From a bacterium (GTDB lineage: Bacteria; SZUA-182; DTGQ01; JAFGSM01), in the NCBI GenBank assembly GCA_049472355.1, contig JBLIRP010000072.1:1-18641 (forward strand): a stretch of 18,641 bases of DNA, given 5' to 3'. Position 1 is the stretch's first letter; each line of letters begins with the position of its first letter. Under the pieces are notes generated by a model that was not told where the DNA came from, searched no databases, and saw only the letters and a list, made by a program, of their open reading frames with translations. The position numbers were made by a program, and so were the translations under genes. Positions 2 through 18,641 of the stretch are shown in pieces.

Positions 2-574
2 GAGGACCTGACGCAGATGGAACTCCACGTGGCGGTTGACGAGGCGGATGTGGGGCAGGTGAAAAAGGGGCAGGATGCAACCTTCACGGTGGATGCATAT
101 CCGGATAGGGAATTTCCGGCCAGGATCACCCAGGTGCGTTATGCATCCCAGACCGTCGAGGGTGTGGTTACCTATGAAACCGTTCTGAACGTGGATAACT
201 CGGACCTGTTGCTGCGGCCGGGCATGACCGCCACTGCGGACATCGTTGTCAAGAGGGTCAAGGACGCGGTCCTGGTTCCCAATGCAGCCCTGCGTTTTAC
301 CCCGCCGGTGCAGCAAAATAATACATCACCGGGAGGCAGGGGCCTGGTGGGTGTGCTTCTGCCCCGTCCTCCGCGGAGAAATTCTCAGGCAGCGCAGCGT
401 CAGGTCAAGACCGCGAACTCTCATAATCAGCGCGTCTGGGTGTTACAGGAGGGAAGGCCCACGGCCATTCCCGTCTCCACAGGCGCATCGGATGGTCAGA
501 TGACCGAGGTGGTGTCAGGGGAGGTCGAACCGGGACTCCCACTGATCGTGGATGTGATGGGGGCAGGCAAATGA
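2..574 (+). CDS. macA: MacA-type efflux periplasmic adaptor (membrane fusion protein), 5'-truncated by the window
   Basis: The frame is open from base 2 (EDLTQMELHVAVDEADVGQVKKGQDATFTVDAYPDREF...LLRPGMTATADI...VLVPNAALRF), typical of the beta-barrel and C-terminal part of MacA/HlyD adaptors. ATGA overlap with the next gene. Confidence 0.9.
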   Translation, partial: EDLTQMELHVAVDEADVGQVKKGQDATFTVDAYPDREFPARITQVRYASQTVEGVVTYETVLNVDNSDLLLRPGMTATADIVVKRVKDAVLVPNAALRFTPPVQQNNTSPGGRGLVGVLLPRPPRRNSQAAQRQVKTANSHNQRVWVLQEGRPTAIPVSTGASDGQMTEVVSGEVEPGLPLIVDVMGAGK

Positions 575-1308
575 AAACCGGCACCTCGAACCATAGGGAT
601 GATCCGCATGACATGCCCCTCATCGATTTCAGTGCGGTGGCCAAGGTCTACGGCAGGGGCCAGGCAGCCATAAAGGCCCTGAGAGGCATTGACCTTCGGA
701 TTGACAACGGCGATTTCGTTGCGGTGATGGGGCCCAGCGGGTCGGGGAAATCCACCTGCATGAACATTGTGGGGTGTCTGGATATACCCACCTCCGGTTC
801 GTATCGATTCAAGGGGGTGGAGGTTGGCGCGCTCACCCGTGATCAACGCGCCCTTTTGCGCCGCAACTATCTGGGATTCGTGTTTCAGGGATTCGATCTT
901 CTCAACCGCACATCGGCCCTTGAAAATGTGGAGTTGCCATTGATCTATCGTCATGTTCCTGCAGGGGAGCGGCACGCCCGCGCCCATAAGGCGCTCGAGG
1001 CGGTGGGCCTCAAGGGGTGGGAAACGCATACCCCGGGCGAGCTCTCCGGCGGCCAGCAGCAGCGGGTCGCCATTGCACGTGCCATGGTGACGGAGCCCGA
1101 TGTATTGCTGGCGGACGAGCCCACCGGCAATCTGGATACGGTTAGAAGCAGGGAGATCATGGACCTGCTTTCCTCCTTTAACCGCGAGCAGGGCATCACC
1201 ATTCTCATGGTGACCCATGAGCCGGATATGGCCGCCTATGCCAAACGAATCATCCGTTTCCTCGACGGCGCCATCGATGCCGAGGAGCGAAACGGGGGTG
1301 ATGCATAA
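571..1308 (+). CDS. ABC transporter ATP-binding protein, MacB/LolD family
   Basis: Walker [16 protein letters not shown]-loop, signature [14 protein letters not shown], Walker [13 protein letters not shown]-loop VTHE. An alternative start at 613 is possible. Confidence 0.95.
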
Positions 1309-2519
1309 TGGTATGGGATACCATCCTTCTCGCCCTGCGGGAGATCCGGCGCAATGTCATGCGCTCCTCCCTCACCATCCTGGGGATCGTCATCGGTGTT
1401 GCAGCGGTCATCACCATGGTAACCCTCGGGAAGGGGGCCACGCTGAAGGTCACCTCCGATATAACAAAGCTCGGCACGAATATGCTTCAGCTACGGCCCG
1501 GCCAGGGCTTCCGGGGACCGGGCGGCACACGGGCCGCTGCCAGCATGTTTGATGTAAAGGATGCAGAGGTGATTAAACGGGATATCTCGGGACTGGCAGC
1601 CGTAGCCCCAGCAGCCTCCGATCGTGTACAGGCCATTTATGGGAATGTAAACTGGTCAACATCGGTCACCGGGAGTGACAATGCCTTTCTGCAGGTGCGT
1701 AACTGGTCCCTCAAGGAAGGAAGGGAGTTCACGGGCAACGAGCTGCAAGGCGGGAAGACCGTCTGCATCCTGGGTTCCACGGTGCGCGACAATCTTTTCG
1801 CCTCACAGGACCCCCTCGGGTCCACGATCCGTCTGAAAAGGCTCTCCTGCCAGGTCATCGGCGTGCTCGAGTCCAAGGGGCAGTCCGGTTTTGGCTCGGA
1901 CCAGGACGACTTCGTGCTTATACCGCTGCGCACCTTTCAGCGGCGCATTGCAGGGAACGATGATGTGGAGGTCATTTATATCTCCGCCCAGGATGGCGTA
2001 TCTACGGAAAAGGTCCAGCAGGATGTCGAACGGCTGATGCGCGAGCGTCGCCATATTGCGCAGGGGAAGGATGACGATTTCAATGTCAGGGACATGAAGG
2101 AGCTGGTGAGCACCCTGACCGGCACCACAAAGCTGCTCACCGCCCTGCTTGCCGCAGTTGCGGCGGTAAGCCTGCTGGTCGGGGGGATCGGGATCATGAA
2201 CATCATGCTCGTATCCGTGACCGAAAGGACCAGGGAGATCGGGATCAGGCTGGCCATCGGCGCCAGGGAACGGGAGGTGCTGATGCAGTTCCTGGTGGAG
2301 GCCGTGGTGCTCTCATCCCTCGGCGGGCTTGCGGGGATCATCATCGGCCTTTCCGCATCCGCCATCGGGGCGCATTTTCTTCAGGTCCCCTTTGTGTTCA
2401 CCCTGGGGATCGTCCTCCTCGCCTTTCTCTTTTCAGGGGCGGTGGGTGTGCTGTTCGGCTTTTTCCCGGCCCGCCAGGCTGCGCGCCTCAACCCGATCGA
2501 CGCCCTTCGGCACGAGTAA
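1308..2519 (+). CDS. macB: MacB-like ABC transporter permease (MacB periplasmic core + FtsX domain)
   Basis: RSSLTILGIVIGVAAVI TM1, large periplasmic domain, SLLVGGIGIMNIMLVSVTERTREIGIRLAIGA, FGFFPARQAARLNPIDALRHE. TAATG coupling to the ATPase. Confidence 0.95.
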   Translation: MVWDTILLALREIRRNVMRSSLTILGIVIGVAAVITMVTLGKGATLKVTSDITKLGTNMLQLRPGQGFRGPGGTRAAASMFDVKDAEVIKRDISGLAAVAPAASDRVQAIYGNVNWSTSVTGSDNAFLQVRNWSLKEGREFTGNELQGGKTVCILGSTVRDNLFASQDPLGSTIRLKRLSCQVIGVLESKGQSGFGSDQDDFVLIPLRTFQRRIAGNDDVEVIYISAQDGVSTEKVQQDVERLMRERRHIAQGKDDDFNVRDMKELVSTLTGTTKLLTALLAAVAAVSLLVGGIGIMNIMLVSVTERTREIGIRLAIGAREREVLMQFLVEAVVLSSLGGLAGIIIGLSASAIGAHFLQVPFVFTLGIVLLAFLFSGAVGVLFGFFPARQAARLNPIDALRHE

Positions 2520-2629: not shown

Positions 2630-3352
2630 CTAATCAAACGCCATGTGCGTCTTCCAGACCTCCCATACCTTTCCCACGAGATCAGGCCCTGGTTTCAGCG
2701 TCATCTTTCCGGGCTTCCATCCCGATGGTGTCGCCTCCGTGCCCTTGCTGTTTCTCACGTGCTGAAACGCCTGGATCTGCCGTATTGACTCACTGACGTT
2801 TCTTCCCACGGGAGGTGTAAGCACCTCGTATCCCTGCACCACCCCATCCGGGTCGATAATAAACCTTCCCCGTGTCTCCACGCCCGCATCCTCATCGTAT
2901 ATGCCGTAGATGGTTCCCACCTTGCCCCCTGCATCGGAGAGCATGGCAAAAGGCACGCCGCCGGACACCATCTTGGAAAGCTCGTTGTCGTTCCACATCT
3001 TATGCACGAAGATGCTGTCAACGCTCATCGACAATATTTCCACGCCGAGCTTTTGAAATTCGGGGTATTTTTCGGCAACTGCCGAAATCTCGGTAGCTCA
3101 GACAAAGGTGAAATCACCCGGGTAGAAACAGAGTATAACCCATTTCCCCAGGTACTCGGATAGCTTTACCTGGACGAATTTTCCCTTATGATAGGCCGGT
3201 GCGACAAAATCAGGTGCCTTTCTGCCCACTTTGATCATTGCGCGTGCCTCCTTTGCACTGGGTTTTTCTTCCTGCTGTGGTTGTTCCTTCTCCGGCTCGC
3301 CGACAGGACCGCCCGTCGGCCTGGCGCAGCCGACCTTCATTTCTTCAGGCAT
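2630..3352 (-). CDS. prxU: Selenocysteine-containing peroxiredoxin (AhpC/Prx1 family, PrxU type), 240 aa with UGA=Sec at 3098-3100
   Basis: ORFs 3098..3352 and 2630..3043 are in the same frame. Reading through gives [38 protein letters not shown], matching AhpC FYPxDFTFVCPTE with TGA at the peroxidatic Cys. [10 protein letters not shown] and VGRNVSE motifs follow. Shine-Dalgarno AAAGGAGG upstream; SECIS-like hairpin downstream of the TGA. Confidence 0.93.
3070..3087 (-). promoter_or_regulatory. Bacterial SECIS-like hairpin of prxU
   Basis: Minus strand reads TGA GCTACCGAGA TTTCGGC AGTT GCCGAAA: 10-nt spacer, perfect 7-bp stem, loop containing GT. Confidence 0.8.
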
Positions 3353-3624: not shown

Positions 3625-4824
3625 TCACGATTCTCGCACGCATTGAAGGCGACGATGGAGCCTTTCATTCCTGTAGAGCGCCTCCCAGAAGGGAAGGACC
3701 TCGCCGTCATCGGAGAGGTGATCGATACAGAATAGCCTGCATTCCGCAAGGTCGATGTTGCCCGGCTTAGGCCAGAAAAATATCTCCACCCTGAGCATGA
3801 GCCTGGTCTCCCGTGGGCCGGGTGGCTCGATGCGGAGCTTCAGCGCATTCTTCATGCCGGCACGATGCAGGATGTGCAGCCAATAGCGAGTCCCGTGCCC
3901 TCTTGACGTGCCGTATCGCTTGCCCAATGCCTCCAGTACATCAATGACAAAATAGTTCCCCGTTTTAAAGATGCGGTTGCACGAGTCATTGGTTTCGCAC
4001 ATCTCCTGTATGGAGAGGCCGGTTGCCTTGGATACCAGTTTTATCATTTCAGAAAGATAGATATACGAGCCCTCATGATAGATGCCGATTTCAGAGACAT
4101 TGCGCAGCCGGATCTGGCGGATGAAATCCAGGTTCCGCATCCCGAATCTGTAAATATCCCCGAATTCTCCCTCATTGACGCCCTTTGCAAGGGTCATGGA
4201 AAGGATAGTCCATACCTTGAGATCCTTGAGGTTTCGAAGCGCCCTGCATTTCGCCTCCCTGAGGTCCTCACCGCAGAAGTGGCAATGGGTTTCCTTGCGG
4301 AACCCGTTCAGGGAAAGGATGACATAGTGCAGCCCTGCCTCCTTGAGGATTTCGAGATAGGCCCTGTCGGCGAGTTTTATCCCGTTCGTAAGGAGCACGC
4401 TGAACCTTTGCCGGTGATTCTTCCGCACATAGGCGATCAATTCGGGGAGGTCGTCCCGCACCGTGGGCTCACCTCCGGAGAAGACGATATATCGCTGCCT
4501 GCTCCTGTCGATGATTGCCTTGATCTCATTCCGGGATAATTCATTCTCCAGACCTTTGTCGGGCAAGTAGCACCACCTGCAGCGAAGATTGCAGCGGTGG
4601 GTGATGGGTATGACCAATCCGTAGGGGCTGTGCCTTCTCCTCCTTGCCGCAACACAGGAAAGGTAGAGCCGGGCATCAGGGTCAAGGGTATTGGTAAACC
4701 TGCCATGACTCCTGCAATCCTTTGCCATGACGACCTTTCCCCCCTCCACCACCACCTGTGCATCTATCTCCTCAAGGCAGAGCGGGCACAGACTCCTGGT
4801 GGGCTTTATGACCATACTGTCCAT
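3625..4824 (-). CDS. Radical SAM protein, divergent MJ0619/Tes (tetraether synthase, GDGT-MAS)-like
   Basis: N-terminal TRSLC13PLC16-x20-C37RSH40GRF rubredoxin-like motif typical of this family; CNLRCRWC radical SAM motif; FSGGEPT; LLTNG; C-terminal NIDLAECRLFCIDHLSDDGEVLPFW resembling the family CCIH..DG..IPFC tail. Confidence 0.75.
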   Translation of the reverse strand: MDSMVIKPTRSLCPLCLEEIDAQVVVEGGKVVMAKDCRSHGRFTNTLDPDARLYLSCVAARRRRHSPYGLVIPITHRCNLRCRWCYLPDKGLENELSRNEIKAIIDRSRQRYIVFSGGEPTVRDDLPELIAYVRKNHRQRFSVLLTNGIKLADRAYLEILKEAGLHYVILSLNGFRKETHCHFCGEDLREAKCRALRNLKDLKVWTILSMTLAKGVNEGEFGDIYRFGMRNLDFIRQIRLRNVSEIGIYHEGSYIYLSEMIKLVSKATGLSIQEMCETNDSCNRIFKTGNYFVIDVLEALGKRYGTSRGHGTRYWLHILHRAGMKNALKLRIEPPGPRETRLMLRVEIFFWPKPGNIDLAECRLFCIDHLSDDGEVLPFWEALYRNERLHRRLQCVRES

Positions 4825-4832
4825 TTATCCCT

Positions 4833-5264
4833 TTACCCCTTTTCCATCCCCGCTGCTTCAATCTTCCGGATAACGGCTATGATAACGGAGAGCACCAATC
4901 CCAATAATGTCCCTACGACAATGCCAAATAGTGCGCCAATGCCCAGGATGCCAAGCAATGTCCCGACACCCTCATGAAGGCCTTTCGTATGTAAAATTAT
5001 ATTCGGGATGTGAACGGTAGGCCCGGAGATCAATCCCGCCAATGTACCGTACAGGGTGCCCATGATCACCCTTATCAGGAATGATTCGCTCTTGATCTCC
5101 AGGGTATATTGGGCATAGTAATAACCCACGAGCATACCGCTCCCGATCCCTGTGATGATACCCGGAGTACCCCCAACTTGTCCCATGAACCCGCCCGCAA
5201 ATGCCGAGATAATCGTTACCGCTATCTCTATCGCTATCTTTACATACTTAAATCCGTCTTCCAT
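4833..5264 (-). CDS. Small Gly-rich integral membrane protein, unknown function
   Basis: 143 aa with about 4 hydrophobic segments carrying GxxxG repeats; SD AGGAGG upstream; tight operon spacing on both sides. Confidence 0.8.
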   Translation of the reverse strand: MEDGFKYVKIAIEIAVTIISAFAGGFMGQVGGTPGIITGIGSGMLVGYYYAQYTLEIKSESFLIRVIMGTLYGTLAGLISGPTVHIPNIILHTKGLHEGVGTLLGILGIGALFGIVVGTLLGLVLSVIIAVIRKIEAAGMEKG

Positions 5265-5282
5265 GCATCCTCCTGTTCCTCA

Positions 5283-6494
5283 TTATCCATCTCCGAAGCC
5301 GAGCTTTGTATAGAGCAGAGGCACCGGCCCCTTTTCCATGGAGTCGAGGAGTTGATCGATTACCTGCATATCCCTGACCGGGAGCCGGTCAATGCCCATC
5401 TCTCTCATGCGCCCTGCAACTGAGGAGATGATACAGCCTGAAAAGGGGCGGGGCAAATATCGGTTCATGCGAGCATATATGGTATTGAAGGATTCATTGC
5501 ACAGGTTGCCGAATGAGAACGGCGAGAAATCGCAGGGGCAGACCTCGCCCTGGGCGTTGACATAGACGTGAACCCTGCCTGCACTGCACCCATAATTCCC
5601 CTGTGCCGTGATGTGTGCAAAGGACATGATGGCAGGCAGGGATATATCCCTGTTTATCGCATACTGGATCTGCCTCATGCGATCCCGGTCTTCCTCCCCG
5701 AACATCTCCTCATCGCCGTACAGGAGCCTCCCGCAGGGCTTTGGCTCCAGTAGCCGGATCTCATGGATACCCAGCCCTGCAGCAAAGCGGACAAATTCAT
5801 CCATTTTCTCCGAATGGAGCATCTGTTTTGTCATGACGGTGGATACGGCGGTGTAGATACCTGCTGCCAGGGCATGCTCGATGGCGGCTATGGCATCATC
5901 GAAGGCGGATTCGCTTCGCCTCATCCGGTTGTGCTCCTGGCTGTCGAGGCTTATCACCATAATGGTGAGCCCCGCCTGTTCCAATGTGCGTGCCCGGGAC
6001 CGGTCAAGGCCATGGCCGCTGGTAAAAAGGATGGTATACGAGCGGTCATCCACCATGCGCAGCAGCGGCTCCAGGTCATCCCTCAGGAGCGGCTCCCCGC
6101 CCGTGAAGCCGATGCACGAGACGCCGGCATCCTGGATCTGCCGGATGATGCGGCATATCTCCTCTGCAGGCAATCCATCTGTCTGCTCCTTGCGTGCATT
6201 GCTGCAATACAAGCACCTGAGAGGGCACCGGTCCGTGACCGATATGTAGCAGGAAAAGGGGCTCATGATCCCCTTCGAAAGGTTGCGGAAGGATTCCAGG
6301 GCCGTTTTGTAACTGCGGGAGGGGAATGGGGTGTACATGGAATTGATGAAGACCCGGTTGTTGTGAAGGGTGAATTTTTCGTGCCGCATCTGCCGGATCA
6401 TGAAGCATATGAATCCCGGCGGGAGTTGCAGGAGCTTTCTGTTAACGCCCCTTGCCATGGAAAGATACTTCCTGATCCCGGTCATATGTCTCAT
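5283..6494 (-). CDS. Radical SAM protein with C-terminal SPASM/Twitch-like domain
   Basis: CPLRCLYC motif, FTGGEPLLR, GCSAGR...GEVCPCDF. The start is placed at ATG 6494 (GAAAGG 9 nt upstream) because the ORF-track start at 6539 lies inside the tandem repeat. Confidence 0.85.
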   Translation of the reverse strand: MRHMTGIRKYLSMARGVNRKLLQLPPGFICFMIRQMRHEKFTLHNNRVFINSMYTPFPSRSYKTALESFRNLSKGIMSPFSCYISVTDRCPLRCLYCSNARKEQTDGLPAEEICRIIRQIQDAGVSCIGFTGGEPLLRDDLEPLLRMVDDRSYTILFTSGHGLDRSRARTLEQAGLTIMVISLDSQEHNRMRRSESAFDDAIAAIEHALAAGIYTAVSTVMTKQMLHSEKMDEFVRFAAGLGIHEIRLLEPKPCGRLLYGDEEMFGEEDRDRMRQIQYAINRDISLPAIMSFAHITAQGNYGCSAGRVHVYVNAQGEVCPCDFSPFSFGNLCNESFNTIYARMNRYLPRPFSGCIISSVAGRMREMGIDRLPVRDMQVIDQLLDSMEKGPVPLLYTKLGFGDG

Positions 6495-6502
6495 ATGCAA
6501 AG

Positions 6503-6749
6503 GCCTTTCATCTGAAAATCCCCTCCGGGGCATTTTCATGCTTCCTTGTGAGCCGAAGTCTCATCTGCGTTTCACTTCTGCATTCTACATTCGACATTCG
6601 TAGTTTCATCAGGCTCATGTGCGTTTCATCTGAAAATCCCTATTGGGCATTTTCATGCTTCTTTGTGAGCCGAAGTCTCATCTGCGTTTCACTTCCACAT
6701 TCTACATTCGATATTCGCAGTTTCATCAGGCTCATGAGCCTTTCATCTG
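6503..6749. repeat. Tandem duplication of a ~117-118 bp structured element, bounded by a 12-bp direct repeat
   Basis: Unit 1 at 6506-6623 and unit 2 at 6624-6740 are nearly identical. GCCTTTCATCTG occurs at 6503-6514 and 6738-6749, with a 1-mismatch copy at 6621-6632. Confidence 0.9.
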
Positions 6750-7591
6750 CCCACCATGAGATCGATGAGCGAAGCAAGGGTTATCGCCCGTATGAAAAAG
6801 AGCACCCCGTGCGAAAACAGCCTGTCTGAAAAAAAGAGGCTCACGACGAAAACCGGCAGCGTGATCACAAAACCGATGAGGTACACCATGCCGCACATAC
6901 CCAGGCAGAAGGGTGCACATGCAATGGGGATGGAGACGAGTGCGAGGATGGTCGCAAGCCTCCTCGTCTCTATGATCCCGATGAGGGAGGGGAGCGTATT
7001 GCCGCCCCCTGACCTGTCTCCGTGTATGTCCAGTATATCCTGTGAAAGCTCATACGACATGACCATAAGGAAGAGCCAGATGGGGAAGATGAAGAGGGAG
7101 TCGCGCCTCGGGGAGGGAGTGCCTCCTGATGTCAGGGCAAAGGAGAGGGGATAGATGGACACGACGAGCAGGGACACGAGTATGTCCTTAATATAGGCGA
7201 GCCTTTTTGAGTATAGGTTATAAAAGTACACTGCCAGGGTATCGAGCATGATCAATCCAAAAAACCATGCATTCACAATAGCCGCTATTAAGAGGCCCAT
7301 GAGGAAAAGCATACGGTACATCCACTGGGCGCCCCTTTTCGAGATAGCGGAGTTTATGAGGACGCGCCGGGGGTTGTTGATGATATCGTACCCCAGGTCG
7401 CAGCAGTCATTCATCATGTATCCCGCACAGATCAACAGGAAAAGGGATGCGATGCCGAGCGCGATAGTGAGGCTGACCGCACTATCCCTCAGCACGTCAA
7501 AAGAGCCATAGGCATAGAGAGAGATGGTGAAGACTCCAAGCAGGATGGAGAAGGCCTTCCCAAGCCTGAATACCTTGAGTATACGGAACAT
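6743..7591 (-). CDS. UbiA-superfamily prenyltransferase, DGGGP synthase (geranylgeranylglyceryl-phosphate geranylgeranyltransferase)-like
   Basis: AGYMMNDCCDLGYDIINNPRRVL (NDxxDxxxD) and YELSQDILDIHGDRSGGGNTLP (second Asp-rich motif, DGGGPS-like); about 8 TM helices. Confidence 0.85.
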   Translation of the reverse strand: MFRILKVFRLGKAFSILLGVFTISLYAYGSFDVLRDSAVSLTIALGIASLFLLICAGYMMNDCCDLGYDIINNPRRVLINSAISKRGAQWMYRMLFLMGLLIAAIVNAWFFGLIMLDTLAVYFYNLYSKRLAYIKDILVSLLVVSIYPLSFALTSGGTPSPRRDSLFIFPIWLFLMVMSYELSQDILDIHGDRSGGGNTLPSLIGIIETRRLATILALVSIPIACAPFCLGMCGMVYLIGFVITLPVFVVSLFFSDRLFSHGVLFFIRAITLASLIDLMVGR

Positions 7592-7609
7592 TATGCTGGT
7601 GCTGCCGGT

Positions 7610-8398
7610 TTACCTGCTCACCATGCACCGGTCCCTGATGGCCTTGTAGCTATTTATGATCTCCATTTTTTCGCCCTTGGACCGGGCAGCCTTCAGGTCC
7701 CGCATGACGAGTTTATACATGGCGATGGCATCCTTGGCCGTCAATGCCATCTGCCGATCGGGGATACCTTCGAGGCCCTGAAAAACGAGCCACTGATTGC
7801 TCGCACGGACGACCGAGAGTGCGTTGTTCACCACCCTTCCCCTGAAGGTGTAATTGTTTTCGTTGAGGAGCCTGACGTGCATGAGCCCATCGAGGTCCAT
7901 GTATTTTCGTATCCATCTACTCTGCACCTCGGGTATCCGGTAGGATGCCTCCCATGCAGGTTTGAAAAGGGCATTCACGATGAGGAATTCCTCCCGCGTA
8001 TCGACGGTGCCATCCTCGAAGAAGTACTTGGCATTCATGATGCCTTCGTCGGAAAGAGGGATGACCAGGGTCGGTTCCTTGCTTGTATCAAGGCCCCTCT
8101 CAACCACGAGTTCATCCCCCTTGAAGAAAATGGTGAATCCCAGATCCTGATGCTCCTCTGCAATGATATAAGCCACATCGAACATGTCTCTCGCATAGTC
8201 GACCGCAGCCTCAATGGCCGCAGCCTCCCCGAGGGTTTTTTCAAGTACAAGCTCCTCCGATGAGAGGTTATCCACCCTCCCCCGCGCATACATGCGACTG
8301 AAATCCACCCTCTTTTCCTTCGCCCATGGTTTACATCCGGATACGACCAGGAATATGCAGACCAGAAAACATAATGCCTTCACGCCATATCCCCTCAT
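7610..8398 (-). CDS. Lipoprotein of unknown function, possibly with SCP2-like lipid-binding folds
   Basis: Signal peptide MRGYGVKALCFLVCIFLVVSG-C (lipobox, Cys22); SD GGGAGG; two segments resembling SCP2 beta-strand/G..P motifs. Confidence 0.7.
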   Translation of the reverse strand: MRGYGVKALCFLVCIFLVVSGCKPWAKEKRVDFSRMYARGRVDNLSSEELVLEKTLGEAAAIEAAVDYARDMFDVAYIIAEEHQDLGFTIFFKGDELVVERGLDTSKEPTLVIPLSDEGIMNAKYFFEDGTVDTREEFLIVNALFKPAWEASYRIPEVQSRWIRKYMDLDGLMHVRLLNENNYTFRGRVVNNALSVVRASNQWLVFQGLEGIPDRQMALTAKDAIAMYKLVMRDLKAARSKGEKMEIINSYKAIRDRCMVSR

Positions 8399-8439
8399 GG
8401 CAACCTCCCGTGTTTGTGGTTCAATGCATGCCCTTATCC

Positions 8440-9594
8440 TTAGAAGAATGTTGGCAACCGATCAAACAACATGGATGATAACACAGGTTCAGACCAGGGC
8501 CCGAGGCATCGGCAGTCCCTTTCCGCATAGCTTCCGAAAAGGACCCTGTTCCCCGCCCTGCACCCCCCTCCGCAGAGATCCTTATATGAACAGGAGCGGC
8601 ATGCTTGGGGAAGGGTCATGAATTCGCAAAATTCGGCAGATCGATACCGCCGGGCGAAGATATCCCAGATAGTATCATCGAATACTTTCCCGAGACAAAT
8701 ATCGTCGATAAAGGGACAGGGAGTGACGCTGCCGTCGATCTTTACGGAGATCACATAATAGCCGCCCAGACATATCCTGCCGCAGAAGGTCAGGATCCTC
8801 GCAATATATCTGAAATGCTCAGGGCTCCAACAGGAAAGAATCGCATGCTTCACCTCGTGCCAGAGTTCCCGGCTGATCATGAGAGGATCATGGGCCGATT
8901 GGGGCACATACTGGTAGAAGAGCGGGGTTATGCCGAGCCCCTTTTGTACAAGATGCCTGATTTCACTGATATGCCCGACGTTCTCGCTGTGTATGGCAGT
9001 GAAGGTATACGTCTTAATGCCTGCATTCACAAGGTTTCTGATCCCGGTCATGGTCTCCTGCCAGGACCCAGGCTTCCCGGAAAACCGGTCGTGTTTTTCG
9101 GGGTCGTGAGAGATGAGGGTGACGATGGCCCTGTCGAGCCCTGCACGGTAAAGCCTTCGAGCGAGGCCCTCCGTTGCCAGGGTTGCGTTTGTGTAGAGCA
9201 CCGTCTTCCCAATGCCTGTGCGAGACCTTGCAAACCGGATTATCTCAGGGATGTCCCCGCGCAGGAGCGGCTCTCCGCCCAGAAGATCCAGTCGCACAGG
9301 CACATCTCCTATCTGTTCCAGAATGGAGAGGATGCGGGGCAATGGCAGTTCCCTGCCCCGGTTTGGCGCATAGCACATCCTGCAACGGAGGTTGCATGCA
9401 TCCGTGAGGTCAAGTTTGACGACATAGGGATAGCCTCCCACAAGGTGCCTTGAGAATGAACGGATACCGGTCTGGAGCAGGGAACCGGGGGCCGCCCTCC
9501 CCAGTGTGGCAAGGAGGAGATCCTGGCAGGGTATCATGGCCCTGGTCTTATATCTGGCTGCCAGGCCGGCCAATGTCAGCGCACGGCAGCTCAT
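8440..9594 (-). CDS. Radical SAM protein with full SPASM domain
   Basis: CNLRCRMC, LLGGEPLLR, LYTNAT; SPASM cysteines ICLGG..VTPCPF...CRSCSYKDLCGGGCRA...DCRC. ATGA overlap with the methyltransferase. Confidence 0.92.
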   Translation of the reverse strand: MSCRALTLAGLAARYKTRAMIPCQDLLLATLGRAAPGSLLQTGIRSFSRHLVGGYPYVVKLDLTDACNLRCRMCYAPNRGRELPLPRILSILEQIGDVPVRLDLLGGEPLLRGDIPEIIRFARSRTGIGKTVLYTNATLATEGLARRLYRAGLDRAIVTLISHDPEKHDRFSGKPGSWQETMTGIRNLVNAGIKTYTFTAIHSENVGHISEIRHLVQKGLGITPLFYQYVPQSAHDPLMISRELWHEVKHAILSCWSPEHFRYIARILTFCGRICLGGYYVISVKIDGSVTPCPFIDDICLGKVFDDTIWDIFARRYRSAEFCEFMTLPQACRSCSYKDLCGGGCRAGNRVLFGSYAERDCRCLGPWSEPVLSSMLFDRLPTFF

Positions 9595-10448
9595 GGCTTG
9601 ATGCCTATAAAGTATATAAAGCGAAAGGTAAGACGGACGCCGTTCATGCGGTCAACCGCCTCCCGGATTTTGTCATAGATGTATTCGCTGCGCTCCTCGC
9701 GCAATGCACCCCGGAAACCGGCGCAGGGCCCGGCGGTTTTCATCCACTCAACAAGGGATTCCCCTGTTTCAAAGTGGTGCACACAGGTCTTTTCGGAGAG
9801 CGTCCTGACCGAAAGCCCTGCACGCCCCACCATGCGCCTGAAGGCATCAATGCCTGGAGGAAAAAGGAGGGGAGGGAATGATCGCAACGAAAAAGGGTTC
9901 CTGAGCAATATCCTCGTCACGAGCCTCTGAAGCTCGGGCAGGGAGCCCCGTGTATTGACGAGCACGGCGATCCTGCCTCCCCTCGCGAGCACCCTCTGTG
10001 CCTCTTTCAAGATCCTTTCTGGGTCGCCGTATTCGAGGGACCAGCACGCTGCTATAACATCGATGGACTCATCCCCATGCCCCTGCAGGGCGCAGAGCAT
10101 GTCCTTATGCACAAACCGCGTTCCAGATGAAATGCCAAGCCTTTGTCCGGCAAGGGCCAGCATGGCACCCGAGATGTCGTACCCGATAACCGAGCCATTG
10201 GGCCGCACATACCCATCCAGTATTGCTGTGGCATGGCCTGTCCCGCATCCGAGGTCTATGCAGCGCATTCCAGCCCCTACATCCAACTCCTTCAGGATAT
10301 CCCCGGTGAATGCAGCAAGCAGCCTCCTGGTAACAGCGGCATCATAGGTCTGAGCGCATCGGTCATAATCATCCCCGTAGATGCCCGCATCGACCTTCCG
10401 GCCCAGCAACCTGTTAAGCAGTATCAGGGATCTCTGTGCAAGGCCCAT
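9591..10448 (-). CDS. Class I SAM-dependent methyltransferase (UbiE/BioC-like)
   Basis: Motif I CIDLGCGTG, motif II GYDISGAML, SIDVI, EAQRVLARGGRI; SD GGGAG upstream. Confidence 0.9.
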   Translation of the reverse strand: MGLAQRSLILLNRLLGRKVDAGIYGDDYDRCAQTYDAAVTRRLLAAFTGDILKELDVGAGMRCIDLGCGTGHATAILDGYVRPNGSVIGYDISGAMLALAGQRLGISSGTRFVHKDMLCALQGHGDESIDVIAACWSLEYGDPERILKEAQRVLARGGRIAVLVNTRGSLPELQRLVTRILLRNPFSLRSFPPLLFPPGIDAFRRMVGRAGLSVRTLSEKTCVHHFETGESLVEWMKTAGPCAGFRGALREERSEYIYDKIREAVDRMNGVRLTFRFIYFIGIKP

Positions 10449-10799: not shown

Positions 10800-11180
10800 T
10801 CAGGACCGATTTTCCACGATCCTTTCAAGCCCGCTCATCCTCATCCCTACGAGCCTGCCCCGCTTCTTCACGGTGAATCGTTTGAGGCATTCGAATGCCG
10901 CCCGTCTGAGCTCCTTTATGGAGATTGTGGGACCTGGAAGGGTAATCGCCCGTGTGTGCGTCTCGAAGTCACTGAACCTGATCTTTACGGCTACCGTTTG
11001 TCCCGTATACCCCTCCTTTTCCATATCCCGAGCCACCAGTTGTGTAATCCGTGTAAGCGCCCTGGCAATGTCCTGCCATGAACTAAGATCCTTTATTGGT
11101 CTCCCCTTGAGTTCAGGGTGTCTTTTAAGTTCAACTGCTGCAAAAAATGCATCCATATCCAGGTGCGGGATTCGTTTCAT
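10800..11180 (-). pseudogene. dinB: Internally deleted DNA polymerase IV (DinB) remnant
   Basis: MKRIPHLDMDAFFAAVELKRHPELKGRP (DinB N-terminus) is fused in frame directly to the little-finger domain (TVAVKIRFSDFETHTRAITL...RLVGMRMSGL). The catalytic SIDE motif and the thumb are absent. Confidence 0.85.
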
Positions 11181-11298
11181 ATACGCAGTATTCCGCATCC
11201 GTGCCGGTAGGGCGGCGGGTCCAACTCGCAATAATTAATTAATTAATCATATCCATGAAGCAATGAATGGGAAAATATAATCCATTTACGTCTATTAC

Positions 11299-11333: not shown

Positions 11334-11452
11334 AATAAGAGACTTCAGAGGCCATTAGGAATGAGGCTATCAATAGGAGGTGATGGGATGATTTTTGGTT
11401 CAACTTTTCCTTATGAGGTCTTATCGGATCCCATTGCGAAGGAGTGAGAAAC

Positions 11453-14400
11453 ATGGAAAACGATAGAAAACGTCAATCAGAAATGCATCGATTAAGAAGC
11501 CAATGGATATGGGGGCTTCTTTTTATATTTATTGTAAGCCTCATGATCAGCCTCATCCCTCTATCCCATGTGGCTTATGGATATAACGCCGGTCCATGGG
11601 AAGTCGCCATCCTCGAATATCTCTCCCCTCATGATCAGGGGGATATCACCCATCAGGTGGTTGATGGTGAAATGGCCTATATTGCCTATAAAGATGGTTT
11701 TGATGCCATTCACGACACATATTATATTGCAGCCGTCGATATTACCGATCAATTGGAGCCTGCAGTAATCTGGACTCAGAATATCCCCGATGATGTAGAG
11801 GATCTTGTTCTGGATGGCTCGAATCTTTTTATAATAACGAGCACAAAGGGTGTATGGGCTATAGATCTCTATGCCTCCGACGGCTCCAGGCTTACTGAGG
11901 CCGACATCTCCCAGATAACGAAGAAACAGCGGTATCGAAGCGTATACGACGTAGCTCCATACACAACGCAATTCCCCACCTATTATCAGACCAGCGGGAC
12001 GTTCGGTTTCGGCAGCCTGTTTGCCGGCTCCCTTCCGGGTCTGTATAGTACCGGATTCGGTTTCCCGTGGGGTTATCAGACGCCTGGCTCCTATTATCAA
12101 TGGAGTCAGCCTTCGTATCTGACACAGCCATGGAATATGGTGAGCCAATCCTATTCCACATACAATTTTGGGCAGTATTACCCCCCATCCGGCCTTTCAA
12201 CCCAGTACCTGACCACCGGATGGCCGTATTCCTCAATGAACTTTGGCTGGACCGGCCCCTCTGTCTGGTCTCCGTATAGTGTGATTCCCATAGGCGGGAT
12301 CACGTGGCCCACGATAACAGGCTCCTCTTCAAAGAAGACTTCCTCTTCAACGGTCACCAGATATCGCTCACCTGTGCCTGTCAAGCTGCCCATCGACAAT
12401 ACCTCAGGCACAGAGGAAACCGGCCAGATCACCCTGAGCCTTTACAATCTTGCAGGAGATAAGGTCAGCGACCAGACGGAGACCCTGACTATCCAGCCGG
12501 GAGAAAAGGAGTATCCCCTCGTCCTGAATAAGGTCCCTGAAGGCGCCAAGACGGAGGATCTTGCCCGGTACAACCTTCGCTACAAATTCGCCGCAGAGAA
12601 CGGCTCCCTCACCGGCCAGATGAGTCTCTTTCAGGTGGCTGACAAGATGGAGGTCCGCATCCTCGGATCGGATTCCATGTATGCCGGAAGGCCTACGTCA
12701 ATAGGGGTTCATGCCATTGTGCACGGCCAGCCTGAGTCCGTCCAAGGGGCCGGTGTTGACATAGAACTGGTCATGGGCAACAAAACGCAGCATCTGTATC
12801 AGGGTACGACGGATGCGGACGGATTTGTGGAGGCCCTTGTCACAATCCCAGAAAACGCCGGTCAGGCGAAGATCCGGGCAAAGGTAGCCTCCGATCTTGG
12901 TACGGAGACCGTCACCGAGGATGTCCAGATCGTCCGCCTGTTCAAGATCCTGCTGACAACGGATAAACCCATATACCAGCCGGGTCAGACCATCCACATT
13001 CGGACCCTGAGCTTCAAGAAGCCGGATCTCGTGCCTGAGGGGAACAAGGAGATCATTATTGAGTGCGAGGATCCGAAGGGGAACAAGGTCTTCAGGGTTG
13101 CGCCCGAAACGGATGAATTCGGGGTTGCATCCGCAGACTTCACCCTTGGCTCGGATATCAACATGGGCCTTTACACCGTCAGGGCCATCCTTACTGCGGA
13201 CGGCGCTTCCACCCAGTCTGAAAAGAAGGTGCAGGTGGAGCGGTATGTTCTTCCCAAATTCAGTGTGGACCTGAATACGGATGCGGACTATTACCGGCCT
13301 GCAGACACGGTGCACGGCGTAGTCCATGCCGCATACTTTTTCGGCAAGGACCTGGAGGACGCCTTGGTCACCATCGAGGCATCCAAGTTCGATGTGGAAT
13401 TCGTTCCCTTCCAGACCATTACCGGCCATACGGATTCGGAGGGCTTTTTCTCCTTTGACCTGACCCTTCCCAGCTATTTTGTCGGTCTCCCCCTGGAGCA
13501 GGGGAATGCATTCGTCAAGCTGGACATCAAGGTTGAGGATACCGCAGAGCATGAAGAGTCCGTTGTCCGAGAACTGACCGTGACTAAGGCCCCCATCCTG
13601 GTCAAACTCATACCTGAAAGCGGAACGATCGTCATGGGCGTTGAGAACAAATTATTCCTGCTTACCACCAATCCCAAAGGTCAGGGTCTTGCCACCACAA
13701 ACCTCGTAAATTTCAATAACCAGATCCTCACGGTAACGACCGATGAGCAGGGGGTCGGGACATTCACTATAACCCCTGACGAACAATCGAGCCTTCTCTT
13801 CCAGATCGCCTCCCAGGCAAACGGCCAGAGCGCCCTGGTCGAGATAGACCTTTCCAGTGAGGTCGGCCCGGTAAAGGTCCTGCTGCGCACGGACAAGGCC
13901 ATTTACACCGTGGGGGATGTCATGACCATCGATGTCTACACGCCCGAGGAGGTCATGGCACGGCGGATCTTTATGGATCTCATCAAGGAGCGCCAGACCC
14001 TCCTCACCAAAGGGGTGGACGTCAGCAACGGGCATGGACAGGTTGTGATAGATCTAAGCAACCACATGGCAGGCACCCTTCTGGTTGAGGCATACTATAT
14101 CGCGGAGGCAAAAGAGGCGGCATCGGACGTGTTTCGTGATAAGAAGATCGTGTATGTCAATCCTGCAACGGATATCCAGGTGACTGCCACCCTGGACAAG
14201 GAACAGTACCTTCCCGGCGAAAAGGCCAGGATTTCATTCCAGGTCACTCCCGCCCAAACCGCCGCCCTCGGAATCACCATTGTGGATGAGGCTGTATTTG
14301 CCCTCCAGGAGAACAGGCCCGGTCTCCTCAAGGTCTATTTCAGCATGGAGGAGGAGATCATGAAGCCCCGCTTCTGGCCCCTGATTGTCCCCTTTGAGGA

Positions 14401-17188
14401 GGCGGTCACCTCGGAGGAGCCTGCGGAGGAGGAACAGGAAGCGGCGGAGATCGCCTTTGTCACTGCAGAAGAGCCTGAGGACCCCAACCTGGATGCAAGC
14501 AGCTACCCCGACCTGGTGCAGCGGATGAAGGAGTCGGTCGCAAAGGACATCGACAAGGATGCTGATAAAATTGCCAAGGACCTGGGGAATTTATACGTAT
14601 ACAGTGAATGGGCATACACCAATGCCCTCGGTCAGGGGAGGATCAAGACCTATAAGGATCCATGGGGCAATTCCTATACGCTCACTGTAGGTTATAATCA
14701 AGTCTCCCTGACATCCAAAGGCCCGGATGGGAAGTCCGGGACCATTGATGATATCTACTATACAAAGCCTTACCAGCAGGTATACATGCCGGCACCGACG
14801 CCCATTCGTCAGCCTTCCGGTATCGGGTGGGGCGGCGGGGGGGTAATAGGGGTCCCCATCTTTATGATGCCCTCTTCATATTTTGGTCTGGGAGGTGGAG
14901 CCACCTCTTCCAGCGGAGTGTATAGCTATGCCTCGTATGGCAATATACAAAGACAAACAATGTCATCCTCCGGAACCACCTCAACCCAGACAAACGCCGG
15001 CTTTCTGGACCAGGCGAGCCAGCAGGGCCAGGAAACCCCCGGTGAAGAGCCGGAGGCCCAGGAGCCGCGCAAGATCAGGCGTGACTTCCCCGAAACCCTC
15101 CTCTGGGAGCCGCTGCTGATTACCGAATCGGACGGCACGGCCTTGCTTGATGCCAACATGGCGGATTCCATCACCACGTGGCGCATAAGCACCGTGGCAT
15201 CCACGACGGATGGCAGGCTGGGAGGAAGCACCGACGGGATCGTGGTGTTCCAGGATTTCTTCATTGATATCGACCTTCCCGCAGTGCTCACCCAGAATGA
15301 CGAGATCTCGCTTCCCATCGCCATCTACAACTACCTTGATGCATCGCAGGATGTGAGGATCGTCCTGAAGAAGGAGGTTGATGACACCTGGTTCGAGCTG
15401 ACCGGTTCAAATGAGAAGCAGGTGACCCTTGGAACTGGAGAGGTCAGCGTGGTCTATTTCCCCATCAAGGTGGTTGATGTGGGATGGCACGAGCTGACCG
15501 TATTTGGCTACGGCCCGGTTATGAGCGACGCGATCGCGAGAAGGATCGAGGTACTCCCGGACGGCATGGAATTTAACGTGAATGTGAGCGACCGGATGCA
15601 GGGGGATGAGACCAGTCATGTGATCCATATACCCTCTGACGCCATCGACGGGGCGAGCAGTATCCTGGTCAAGGTCTATCCCGGCATCTTCAGCCAGGTA
15701 GTGGAGGGACTTGACAAGCTCTTCAAAGTCCCCTATGGGTGATTCTGCCAAACCACGTCGGTGACGTGGCCGAATGTGCTTGTGCTTGACTACATGATCA
15801 CCACGAATCAGATCACCCCCGAGATCGAGATGAAGGCTCGTCAGTATGTGAACCTGGGGTATCAGCGTCTCCTCACCTTCGAGTCCCCCGGCGGGGGCTT
15901 TGACTGGTCCGGCAGTCCTCCCGGCAAACCCATCCTGACCGCTTACGGTCTCATGGAATTTACCGATATGGCAAAGGTGCACTATGTTGACCCTAAAATG
16001 ACCGAAAGGACCAGGGACTGGCTGGTAGACAAGCAGCAATCGGATGGCTCCTGGCCCACAGGCTATGACCTGTTCGGCACCCTGGGCACCCCCATGCAGA
16101 CTACCGCATTTTCCATTTGGTCGCTTGTGTACTCGGGATACCCCGTAAACAGCAATATCCTGAAGGCCATGAATTACATCAAGGCACGGGTGAATGAAAC
16201 CAGCGACAACTATACCCTGGCCCTCTGCGCCAACGCCCTGCTTGAGGCCAATCCGCAAGACGCTGCCGCACAATCCATCCTGGAACGTCTTGAGGCGGCA
16301 AAGGTCGTGCAAGGAGACACCGTCCACTGGATCTCCGGCGGGCAGAGCGTCACCTATTCACGCGGAAGCTATCTGAACCTCGAGACCACCGCCCTGGTCA
16401 CCCTGGCCTTTATGAAAGCAGGGTGGCGATATCCTCAGAGCATCGATGGGGCACTCAACTATATCATCAAACAGAAGGATGCATACGGACTCTGGGGACA
16501 GGTAGAGGCAACGGTGCACTGCCTGCGGGTGCTCATGATGGCCATGGGAGGCCAGACCGAGGAGATGGATGGGGAGATCCTCATCAGCATAAATGGTCAG
16601 ACCCTGGATAAGGACGACCTGCCCATCTTAAAGATCACCCCTGTGGACACCCCGGTGGTCAGGCTCATCGAGCTTGCCCCTTATACCCTGGAGGGTGACA
16701 ACACAGTGGGCATCCAGCTTGCCGGCGAGGGGAACATCCTCTACCAGATCGTGGGCACCTACTACCGGCCCTGGCAGGAGGTTGTTCTTCCCTCGCAGCC
16801 GCCGCTTTCCATCGATCTTTCCTATGACCGCACGACCCTCACGGTGGACGACACGATCCTGTGCACGGTAACAGTCACCAACAACGTGCCGGGCAGCGTT
16901 ACCAGGCTTGGGATGATCGACCTGGGCATCCCGCCGGGGTTCCGGGTCTTCTGGGAGGATTTTGAAACGGCAATGCAGGAAGACAAGATCTTCAAGTACG
17001 AATCCACCAACCGGCAGCTCAGCCTGTACCTGAACCCGATCCCCTACGGAACACCCGTTACCATTACCTATCGCCTGCAGGCCAAGTACCCGCTTAAGGT
17101 CTCCACGCCCAGATCCAGGGTCTATGAGTATTACAACCCGGATGTGAAGGATGAGTCAAAACCGGTGACCATCAGGGTGCTCAATTAA
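11453..17188 (+). CDS. Alpha-2-macroglobulin-family (thioester-protein family) protein, ~1911 aa, with in-frame UGA (probable Sec) at 15740-15742
   Basis: ORFs 11444..15742 and 15761..17188 are in one frame separated by a single TGA. MG motifs LTTDKPIYQPGQ, YVLPKFSV, LRTDKAIY, LDKEQYLPGE, IVDEAVFAL; A2M domain RRDFPETLLW, ADSITTW, FQDFFIDIDLP; thioester region VPYG*FCQTTSVTWPNV; GYQRLLTFE; receptor-binding domain MIDLGIPPGF and SRVYEYYNP. N-terminal hydrophobic signal/anchor. ATG 11453 has SD AAGGAG. Confidence 0.9.
15753..15769 (+). promoter_or_regulatory. Candidate bacterial SECIS hairpin in the A2M gene
   Basis: TGA TTCTGCCAAA CCACGTC GGT GACGTGG: 10-nt spacer, perfect 7-bp stem, G-starting GGT loop. 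A lower ATTC/GAAT pairing (15742-15745 with 15772-15775) is also possible. Confidence 0.75.
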
Positions 17189-17823: not shown

Positions 17824-18641
17824 ATGAACAGGGTGTTCAGGCACATCGGATGGGGTGTCGTATTCACAGGAATGTTGTGCCTTGGGGCCTGCCTCGATCC
17901 GACTGCAAACAGCTTCGATAAGACCGGGAGCAGTCATAAGACCGTGGTCATCAACGAAATCGTAGCCAGGGCGTCCGATGGCGACGATGACTGGATCGAG
18001 CTCTACAACGCAGGTGAACATGCCGCGTACCTGAGGGATTATGCGTTGGTCGACGACAACGTTGAGCGCGAGCCTGTTCTGCTGCCCGATATCATCCTGG
18101 AGCCCGGCGAGTTTATCATGATCCTGGCAACGGAGGAGGAACCTGAAGACGGCTCCCCGTACGTCCCCTTTCGATTGGGCAGCGATGACATGCTCATCCT
18201 CTACTGGGGCCTTTCCATTCTGGATGTGCTGAACTGGGAGGCGGGTGAGGCGCCTGCCGGGTACAGCTATGGCCGGTTTCCCGACGGTGTCGGTGCGGCG
18301 ACAACCCTGATACCCACACCGAACGTATCAAACAGGGAGATCTTTCTATCCGCCCTGGTGGTCAACGAGATCGTTGCCAGGCCTCTCGATGAAGGCAGTG
18401 ACTGGATCGAACTTTACAATGCCGCTGACTCTCCGGTATATATGGGGGATTACTCCATTGTCGATGATAACGTGTTGCACGATCCGGTGGTGCTGCCTGA
18501 TATGGTCCTGGAGCCGGGCGAGTTTTTCGTGATACTTGCGAGCGACGTGCCCCCCGGAGACGGCTCCTTTTATGTGCCCTTCAGATTGGGTGTGGATGAC
18601 TGCGTGACCCTCTATCAGGATGGGGACATCATGAATGTACT
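17824..18641 (+). CDS. Lipoprotein with tandem lamin-tail (LTD) domains, 3'-truncated by the window (not in the ORF track)
   Basis: My translation: MNRVFRHIGWGVVFTGMLCLGA-C (lipobox), then VVINEIVARASDGDDDWIELYN...LEPGEF...SYGRFPDG...PTP and a second VVNEIVARPLDEGSDWIELYN...LEPGEF. These are the LTD signature INE/DWIELYN motifs. No stop before the window end. Confidence 0.85.
   Translation, partial: MNRVFRHIGWGVVFTGMLCLGACLDPTANSFDKTGSSHKTVVINEIVARASDGDDDWIELYNAGEHAAYLRDYALVDDNVEREPVLLPDIILEPGEFIMILATEEEPEDGSPYVPFRLGSDDMLILYWGLSILDVLNWEAGEAPAGYSYGRFPDGVGAATTLIPTPNVSNREIFLSALVVNEIVARPLDEGSDWIELYNAADSPVYMGDYSIVDDNVLHDPVVLPDMVLEPGEFFVILASDVPPGDGSFYVPFRLGVDDCVTLYQDGDIMNV

Follow-up and report, generated by a model that had tools for sequence, protein, structure and literature searches.

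An A2M-family gene on contig JBLIRP010000072.1 of the bacterial assembly GCA_049472355.1 carries an in-frame TGA where the thioester cysteine is expected and a Cys where the Glu of the C-x-E-Q motif is expected. Complement C3/C4 and A2M are defined chemically by their internal thioester, whose C-x-E-Q motif has been regarded as fixed. The locus raises the question of whether this TGA encodes selenocysteine (Sec, U) and, if so, what role a Cys at its i+2 position could have. The window analyzed here comprises the whole 18,641-nt stretch; positions 15740-15751 on its forward strand read TGA TTC TGC CAA, corresponding to U-F-C-Q in frame at the thioester site.

With the TGA read as U, frame 11444-17188 encodes 1914 residues, among which U1433 is the sole recoded position (Table 1). 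Gene callers split the frame into ORFs of 1432 and 475 aa, and its start codon is ambiguous between GTG 11444 and ATG 11453. Pfam assigned MG2, MG3, A2M_BRD, A2M, thioester (TED), and A2M_recep domains to the one chain, while no NCBIfam model scored above cut-off for this protein family; hydrophobic N-terminal stretches similar to the one in Table 1 are present in other members of the clade described below. An AlphaFold2 model of residues 1205-1914, built with 86 sequences (pLDDT 88.3, pTM 0.82), matched native C3, CD109, C5, and A2ML1 in Foldseek with TM-scores of 0.70-0.80, as compared with 0.33-0.35 for C3b, and the Foldseek E-values were 1e-44 to 1e-42. The model places a helix at residues 1434-1453, with residue 1433 as its N-cap and Cys1435 and Gln1436 as its second and third residues. 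Since a TED and a C-terminal MG domain follow the other MG domains on a single predicted chain, the protein belongs to the thioester-containing (A2M/C3) superfamily, where we file it as a variant rather than a canonical thioester-bearing member, since its motif reads U-F-C-Q and C-x-E-Q is absent.

The best matches in both sequence and fold are animal CD109, alpha-2-macroglobulin, A2ML1, insect TEP1, and C3 (8s3o, 6tav, 7q1y, 2pn5, 2a73), which share with the predicted protein the layout of MG, CUB-like, TED, and C-terminal MG domains and a P-x-G-[C/U]-x-x-Q sequence that starts a TED helix. Unlike the animal members, the bacterial protein would have Sec in place of Cys; it also has Cys where they have Glu, its His/Asn loop is shorter, and it carries a bacterial N-terminal extension. 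No animal thioester protein with Sec was found in a literature search. The Type I bacterial A2Ms (E. coli ECAM, Salmonella SaA2M; 4u48) are likewise bacterial and exported and have a TED with a Cys..Gln-type site, but they are far more distant, with CLEQ in place of U-F-C-Q and a TED match of E 3e-6 for 4u48 versus 6e-22 for CD109; of 70 profile matches, the best 60 did not include 4u48, which stands here for enterobacterial Type I A2M (ECAM/YfhM). A bait-triggered trap is the likely mode of action in common with them (PMC4498604).

Table 1 Features of the A2M-family gene and of the internal control in the window
Feature	Position	Strand	Basis
A2M-family thioester-containing protein, 1914 aa with TGA read through	11444..17188	+	ORFs, Pfam, fold
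Hydrophobic stretch near the N-terminus, probably a signal peptide or a membrane anchor	11504..11575 (limits approximate)	+	Read from sequence
Gly/Ser/Thr/Tyr low-complexity linker ahead of A2M (MG7), probably the bait region	14771..15058 (limits approximate)	+	Inference from position and composition
TED, residues 1415-1697	15686..16534	+	Pfam PF07678, E 1.2e-34
In-frame TGA, predicted Sec1433, at thioester Cys position; helix N-cap in model	15740..15742	+	
TGC, Cys1435, replacing Glu of CxEQ	15746..15748	+	
CAA, Gln1436, putative ester acyl donor; kept in 10/10 clade genes with readable motif	15749..15751	+	
SECIS-type hairpin, 7-bp stem, loop GGU, 17 nt after UGA; last three bases encode Trp1442	15753..15769	+	
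Ser1489, in this copy alone; Tyr or Phe, probably an aromatic of the pocket, in the rest of the clade	15908..15910	+	Alignment
Gly1545, Asn in the other 13 clade sequences; aligned to the His/Asn target-preference site of animal thioester proteins	16076..16078	+	Gapped alignment, inferred
C-terminal macroglobulin (receptor-binding) domain	16913..17149	+	Pfam PF07677; Y-x-Y-Y-N-P motif conserved, as a thioester-protein pocket would predict
Internal control: in-frame TGA of peroxiredoxin (PxxxTxxU), hairpin of equal spacing and stem length	3098..3100	-	

We regard the TGA at 15740-15742 as very probably a selenocysteine codon. It lies in frame on a conserved Cys column with homology on both sides, which is the pattern by which a bacterial selenoprotein is predicted from sequence. 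The hairpin that follows, whose stem begins 10 nt past the UGA (region MFE -10.3 to -13.7), agrees with the bacterial SECIS consensus of the review PMC13188914 on all four of its points. It is identical in all five U-F-C-Q genes of the clade (7/7 pairs each); 3-5 of the seven pairs are kept in the four Cys genes of the clade with DNA, and 1-2 in three CFEQ controls. Codons 1436-1441 are the same in all five U genes, as compared with 24 of 279 invariant residues that keep one codon elsewhere. Because the 61-nt region folds no better than its shuffles (z -0.26, no significant folding signal), the SECIS assignment rests on this conservation. The same hairpin geometry occurs at 141 of the 84,701 TGAs genome-wide, among which is the peroxiredoxin TGA (3100-3098) that served as the internal control; TxxU peroxiredoxins are a verified selenoprotein family (PMC13188914). 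Another TGA with a candidate hairpin, on contig C103, was rejected as a shadow frame, since a long, genuine ORF runs opposite to it.

A true stop at this position would leave either a broken gene or two chains, the second restarting at GTG 15761. Databases do annotate the halves separately, about 45 of the 101 U-F-E-Q loci surveyed below have no 7-bp stem in this register, and neither selA nor tRNA-Sec (selC) was found in this genome's assembly, which is 87.5% complete. Against a stop, TGA occupies the catalytic Cys codon in 105 listed loci that belong to several distinct lineages and keep the two halves in frame, the hairpin is conserved at silent sites, and selA scored above cut-off in all 31 carrier genomes tested (reached via 33 TGA loci), as compared with 46 of 61 genomes in a Planctomycetota sample that includes three carriers; related genomes are not independent. 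Both selB and selD were found in this genome, the latter carrying its own TGA, and because the selB match ends at the end of its contig, an adjoining selA may be unassembled. Kin genomes carry selA (5/5) and tRNA-Sec (4/5). We therefore consider a true stop very improbable; Sec read-through at this site would explain many split A2M annotations.

That the residue at i+2 is Cys (TGC) and not Glu, as the initial annotation had stated, was borne out at 15746-15748: of the 391 database proteins covering the motif column, 386 have CFEQ and the others CLEQ (1), CFTQ (2), or CFGQ (2), such that Glu is present in 387 (472 proteins were examined; 81 lack the column). U-F-C-Q also occurs in four further genes of about 64-71% identity that encode the Cys by TGC or TGT, and the motif is for this reason not a chance occurrence or an assembly slip. 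Among sequencing reads (4 of 20 runs), a contig spanning the motif had 9 differences over 237 nt, with no change of the TGA or TGC among the rows listed; none of the contigs listed from these runs that span the motif was near-identical, and the reads were not counted as support. In two RNA runs, the fraction of words present was below 0.1.

How widely the Cys accompanies Sec was addressed with a pattern scan of a genome collection, which returned at least 120 loci; 15 chance matches (no open frame, alignment score <60) were dropped, leaving 105 A2M genes with TGA at the codon, including the low-scoring L063, which has broken flanks and was kept as U-F-E-Q. These loci span at least seven named phyla, and 101 of them keep Glu (Chloroflexota 43, Planctomycetota 38, Myxococcota 10, four other phyla 1 each, unassigned 6). 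Cys at i+2 was found in the other four, which lie in genomes G004, G006 (two), and G009. The U-F-E-Q macroglobulins thus share with the present gene the TGA at the thioester Cys but, unlike it, retain the Glu, which contradicts the notion of Cys as a general partner of the TGA: as judged from these loci, a Cys partner is not generally required for Sec at the thioester position. The converse concern, that C-x-C-Q might be common in Cys homologs regardless of Sec, found no example among the 391 database proteins, even with C-F-C-Q as the query of one search. A metagenome scan for non-Glu members gave 11 loci (six chance matches, three copies of a distant C-F-S-Q gene, and two C-F-G-Q genes of the clade) and no new U-F-C-Q.

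The same survey bears on whether RNA structure, namely the lower stem of the SECIS element, and not the amino acid, holds the TGY codon in place. A 4-bp lower stem that uses the first two TGY bases can be drawn in the U genes, and the adjacent codons are fixed at silent sites. Glu codons, however, give a lower stem of equal length in a shifted register, 56 of the 101 U-F-E-Q loci share the 10-nt spacer and 7-bp upper stem while having GAR, and the Cys codon is variable at its third position, all of which make this explanation highly improbable.

In trees that excluded the 13 motif codons and left out the truncated gene L158, the non-Glu sequences of this group formed one clade (100/100), with the distant C-F-S-Q gene far outside, which places a single loss of Glu on the stem of one small clade. 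The clade contains five U-F-C-Q genes (this gene, L157, L159, L160, and L161) and five Cys genes, of which the C91 paralogue and P0002 have Thr at i+2 and L151/P0003, L155, and the truncated L158 have Gly, together with at least six split C-terminal halves with an unreadable motif. The initial annotation had reasoned that the change from GAA/GAG to TGC needs three base substitutions and that the site was therefore remodeled; the codon arithmetic holds, but the loss of Glu is linked neither to this gene nor to its TGA. The closest Cys relatives are likewise without Glu (CFTQ, CFGQ), and TGC is one substitution away from GGC, the codon present in three of them. The three substitutions are thus part of the clade's history and not of this gene's, whichever direction Sec changed.

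Within the clade, Cys stands at i+2 in each of the five Sec genes, and Thr or Gly in each of the five Cys genes. L157 is the sister of the C-F-G-Q genes (100/100), and neither the U genes nor the Cys genes form a clade of their own (AU p 2.5e-60; 3.8e-55), which indicates that both motif positions changed together at least twice. With two of two independent pairs in agreement (sign test p 0.5), the apparent coupling of Sec and Cys is not significant. The covariation expected by the initial annotation accordingly appears inside the clade (5 U-x-C versus 5 C-x-T/G) but not across the family. The ancestral state was likely U-F-C-Q, from which Cys was regained twice; such an ancestor fits the identity of the hairpin among the U genes, its decay in the Cys genes, and the Trp1442 kept there, whereas in the N-terminal tree two gains of Sec are one step shorter than the alternative direction. 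As proof of a Sec ancestor, Trp1442 is weakened by 5 of 263 Cys/Glu proteins that share the Trp, and L078, an unrelated gene with U-F-E-Q, carries this hairpin unchanged. In the trees, the U-F-C-Q clade lies apart from the U-F-E-Q loci; among the relatives sampled, CFEQ proteins are closest to it, a placement without firm support. A mosaic or conversion origin of the motif was rejected for long tracts, none of which was seen by segment trees and sliding identity, which leaves room for a tract of about 10 codons.

These counts would also be expected if the Cys were a passenger, i.e. if the i+2 position had relaxed after the loss of Glu on the stem, with Cys, Thr, and Gly all tolerated and the match to Sec produced by ancestry and two coincidences. 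There are only two independent contrasts, three residue types occur at i+2 in 10 genes, Cys is absent from the 101 other Sec genes listed, and one further, unrelated column (I1497/V) separates the U and Cys groups identically. On the other hand, the Cys has been retained, despite synonymous substitutions, in five genes that are about 60-75% identical, and it changes both times that Sec changes. The 1914-residue protein has only five true Cys, and a free surface Cys adjoining Sec would therefore be unlikely to be neutral. On balance, a passenger Cys seems unlikely to us.

Whether an ester could still form at the site was assessed from the residues around it. The internal ester links Cys and Gln in a 15-membered ring (PMC3274692); the Glu lies outside the bond. 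Gln is present in 10 of 10 clade genes, nine of which were found by protein similarity without a Gln filter, and these include genes without the second Cys. P1430, G1432, and P1443 are invariant across the clade, with both prolines flanking the nucleophile position U1433 and Q1436; the C-terminal Tyr motifs are conserved, as is most of the pocket. Because Gln and most of the pocket are kept, the ester probably survives in the clade. Loss of the Glu may nevertheless destabilize or abolish it, since in Salmonella A2M a Tyr of the C-terminal domain contacts the CxEQ Glu (PMC4498604). In C3, a QM/MM calculation assigns to Glu1012 both the orientation and the deprotonation of the ester-hydrolyzing water (preprint 10.64898/2025.12.13.694092), and the role of His1126 and Glu1128 is described in PMC6983669.

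In this copy, two residues speak against an intact ester, as far as the alignment can tell: Ser1489, at a position that, from the alignment and by comparison with C3, probably belongs to the pocket, and Gly1545. At the His/Asn position, the alignment shows His in CD109 and C3 and Asn in A2M; by a rough count, 24 of 44 CFEQ proteins have a His-type loop, while 13 of 14 clade sequences have Asn. Asn at this position favors amine targets. The pocket Met position varies in the clade among Leu, Ile, and Met.

The geometry of the alternative bond was examined in a toy model of an idealized helix start (perturbed conformers with bond, angle, and clash limits), which does not use protein coordinates. 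An i/i+2 bond fit 20-29% of conformers for Se-S and 7-16% for S-S; a relaxed dihedral was reached in 1-5% and 0-1%, respectively, as compared with 8-23% for the i+3 control. By this model, an i/i+2 Se-S bond is possible, strained, and easier to form than S-S.

The initial annotation had proposed a U-x-C redox switch, in which Se-S would be the resting state and the ester would form only upon reduction, or in which the ester would be gone and redox chemistry would take place on an A2M scaffold. That Cys tracks Sec within the clade and that Se-S is reachable at i+2 and fits better than S-S agree with it, as do the disappearance of an otherwise near-universal Glu from the whole clade, the pocket changes in this copy, and the U-x-C motifs in predicted selenoprotein families (PMC13188914, Table 1). 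Those families include thioredoxin-like Sec.2, the SO_0444 family, and ferredoxin-thioredoxin reductase, in which Sec and Cys are two apart (UxC or CxU); they are predicted entries of unrelated fold, and while a helix N-terminus is common to both, in the present protein an invariant Gln at i+3 would compete for the Sec. Replacement of the ester is disfavored, since Gln, both Pro, and most of the pocket are kept, the Gln even in Cys-only members without a second Cys. Moreover, Gln as the third helix residue suits pairing with the N-cap, as reflected in the relaxed geometry above; the site would be buried in the native fold, by analogy; and no redox gene is shared by the neighborhoods of clade genes in 10 loci, where two-component proteins are the common neighbors instead. 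On balance, we hold a redox switch of this kind to be rather unlikely.

The reading that we favor, tentatively and with considerable doubt, is an exported, monomer-sized protein in which Sec1433 and Gln1436 form a selenoester without the water-activating Glu and the freed selenol is capped by Cys1435 through a strained Se-S bond. In its strongly supported first step, the hairpin at 15753-15769 would direct decoding of the UGA as Sec, and the Sec and Gln would then form the internal ester within a mostly conserved pocket. Selenoesters are more reactive than thioesters, and the loss of the i+2 Glu by the clade, together with Asn at the His/Asn position, could slow the wasteful hydrolysis of the more reactive ester and favor amine targets. 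Last and weakest in the scheme, bait cleavage would lead to acyl transfer to the protease or another target and free the selenolate, which Cys1435 would catch as a strained, reducible Se-S, shielding it from over-oxidation. Reversion of Sec to Cys would also have lost the second Cys, because an S-S ring fits worse there. In this picture the sequence, its conservation, the hairpin, and the tree are observed, and the chemistry is inferred at every step.

In favor of the capped selenoester, we count the coupling of the Cys (5/5 versus 0/5), the synonymous TGC/TGT variation, and the Se-S geometry. Counted against it are the 101 of 105 listed Sec-type loci that keep Glu and have no Cys, because of which neither loss of Glu nor gain of Cys is needed for a Sec warhead; the pocket-side residues lost at S1489 and G1545 in this copy and the variable Met position; the limitation to two independent pairs and the identical split at I1497/V; the small share of conformers with a relaxed Se-S dihedral; and the selA and tRNA-Sec not found in the 87.5%-complete genome. 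A further version, in which one Sec alternates between two bonds, a gamma-glutamyl selenoester to Gln and a selenenylsulfide to Cys, such that the trap is armed only when reduced and would amount to a complement/A2M-type covalent warhead under redox control, is in our view unlikely.

Macroglobulin is absent from the 119-family selenoprotein catalogue in Table 1 of the 2026 review PMC13188914, and term searches of the deep-Sep, BSepDB, and SelCysML articles (main text) did not return the word. Within the coverage of our literature search, which lies outside subscription journals, no Sec-bearing thioester protein was found, nor were the bond and control principle of a redox-gated selenoester/selenenylsulfide warhead found described. 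The predicted protein would be a large exported one with a non-redox role for Sec, as compared with a catalogue of mostly oxidoreductases. The sites found here make up a natural series, C-F-E-Q, U-F-E-Q, U-F-C-Q, C-F-T-Q, and C-F-G-Q, some of which occur together in one genome, and with this series the role of the Glu, the feasibility of an internal selenoester, and its gating or protection by an adjacent thiol become testable.

A paralogue of the U-F-C-Q gene (G000:C91:1-2625; 64% identity) belongs to the same genome as the window; in it the motif reads C-F-T-Q and the hairpin has decayed, so both forms occur in one genome. The C-F-G-Q copy L158 (G011:C31, about 60089-60560) is damaged: where the TED has barely begun, its reading jumps out of frame to the C-terminal end, which is an internal deletion, and the copy is probably a pseudogene.

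The 7-bp hairpin stem is not shared by all loci that have TGA at the thioester codon (position i) and keep Glu. In L047, L057, L058, L084 and similar U-F-E-Q loci of Planctomycetota, the TGA is kept, the 7-bp stem is absent in the register of the focal gene, and selA was found wherever tested; these loci possibly use a different SECIS form. In the Myxococcota U-F-E-Q genes L078 and L060/L072/L136/L144, the residue at i+9 is Trp, not Tyr, and this Trp completes the stem. The L078 hairpin consists of the same 17 nt as that of the U-F-C-Q clade, yet L078 is unrelated to the clade in the tree, and the shared hairpin reflects either convergence or transfer.

Many TED proteins in the databases are annotated as 'hypothetical', span 465-485 aa and begin with V/M-T-Y/W-P-N directly past the thioester motif; these are probably the C-terminal halves of Sec-type genes. 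Glu was apparently lost separately in a distant A2M-like gene with C-F-S-Q (L146, L147 and L149). A second thioester protein, further removed, is represented by L023 (G004:C67:19562-20308), whose CGEQNM motif is very animal-like, and L024 (G009:C130).

The remaining genes of the window include a 262-aa protein without a match in a Pfam search and a second TGA-containing gene, which standard gene calling breaks into pieces. The latter encodes a peroxiredoxin of an already known selenoprotein family, and the SECIS-type hairpin at its TGA has a z of -2.0.

Other features of the window
Feature	Position	Strand	Remarks
Efflux-type set: putative membrane fusion protein, ABC ATPase and permease	2-2519	+	
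Peroxiredoxin, PxxxTxxU	2630-3352	-	TGA at 3100-3098, SECIS-type hairpin
Cluster: radical SAM genes (three, of which two have SPASM domains), UbiA prenyltransferase, methyltransferase, 262-aa protein	3625-10448	-	Pfam
DinB-type polymerase remnant	10800-11231	-	Short N-terminal piece fused to C-terminal domain
Lamin-tail-domain protein, repeated	17824-18639	+	Pfam; truncated by contig end
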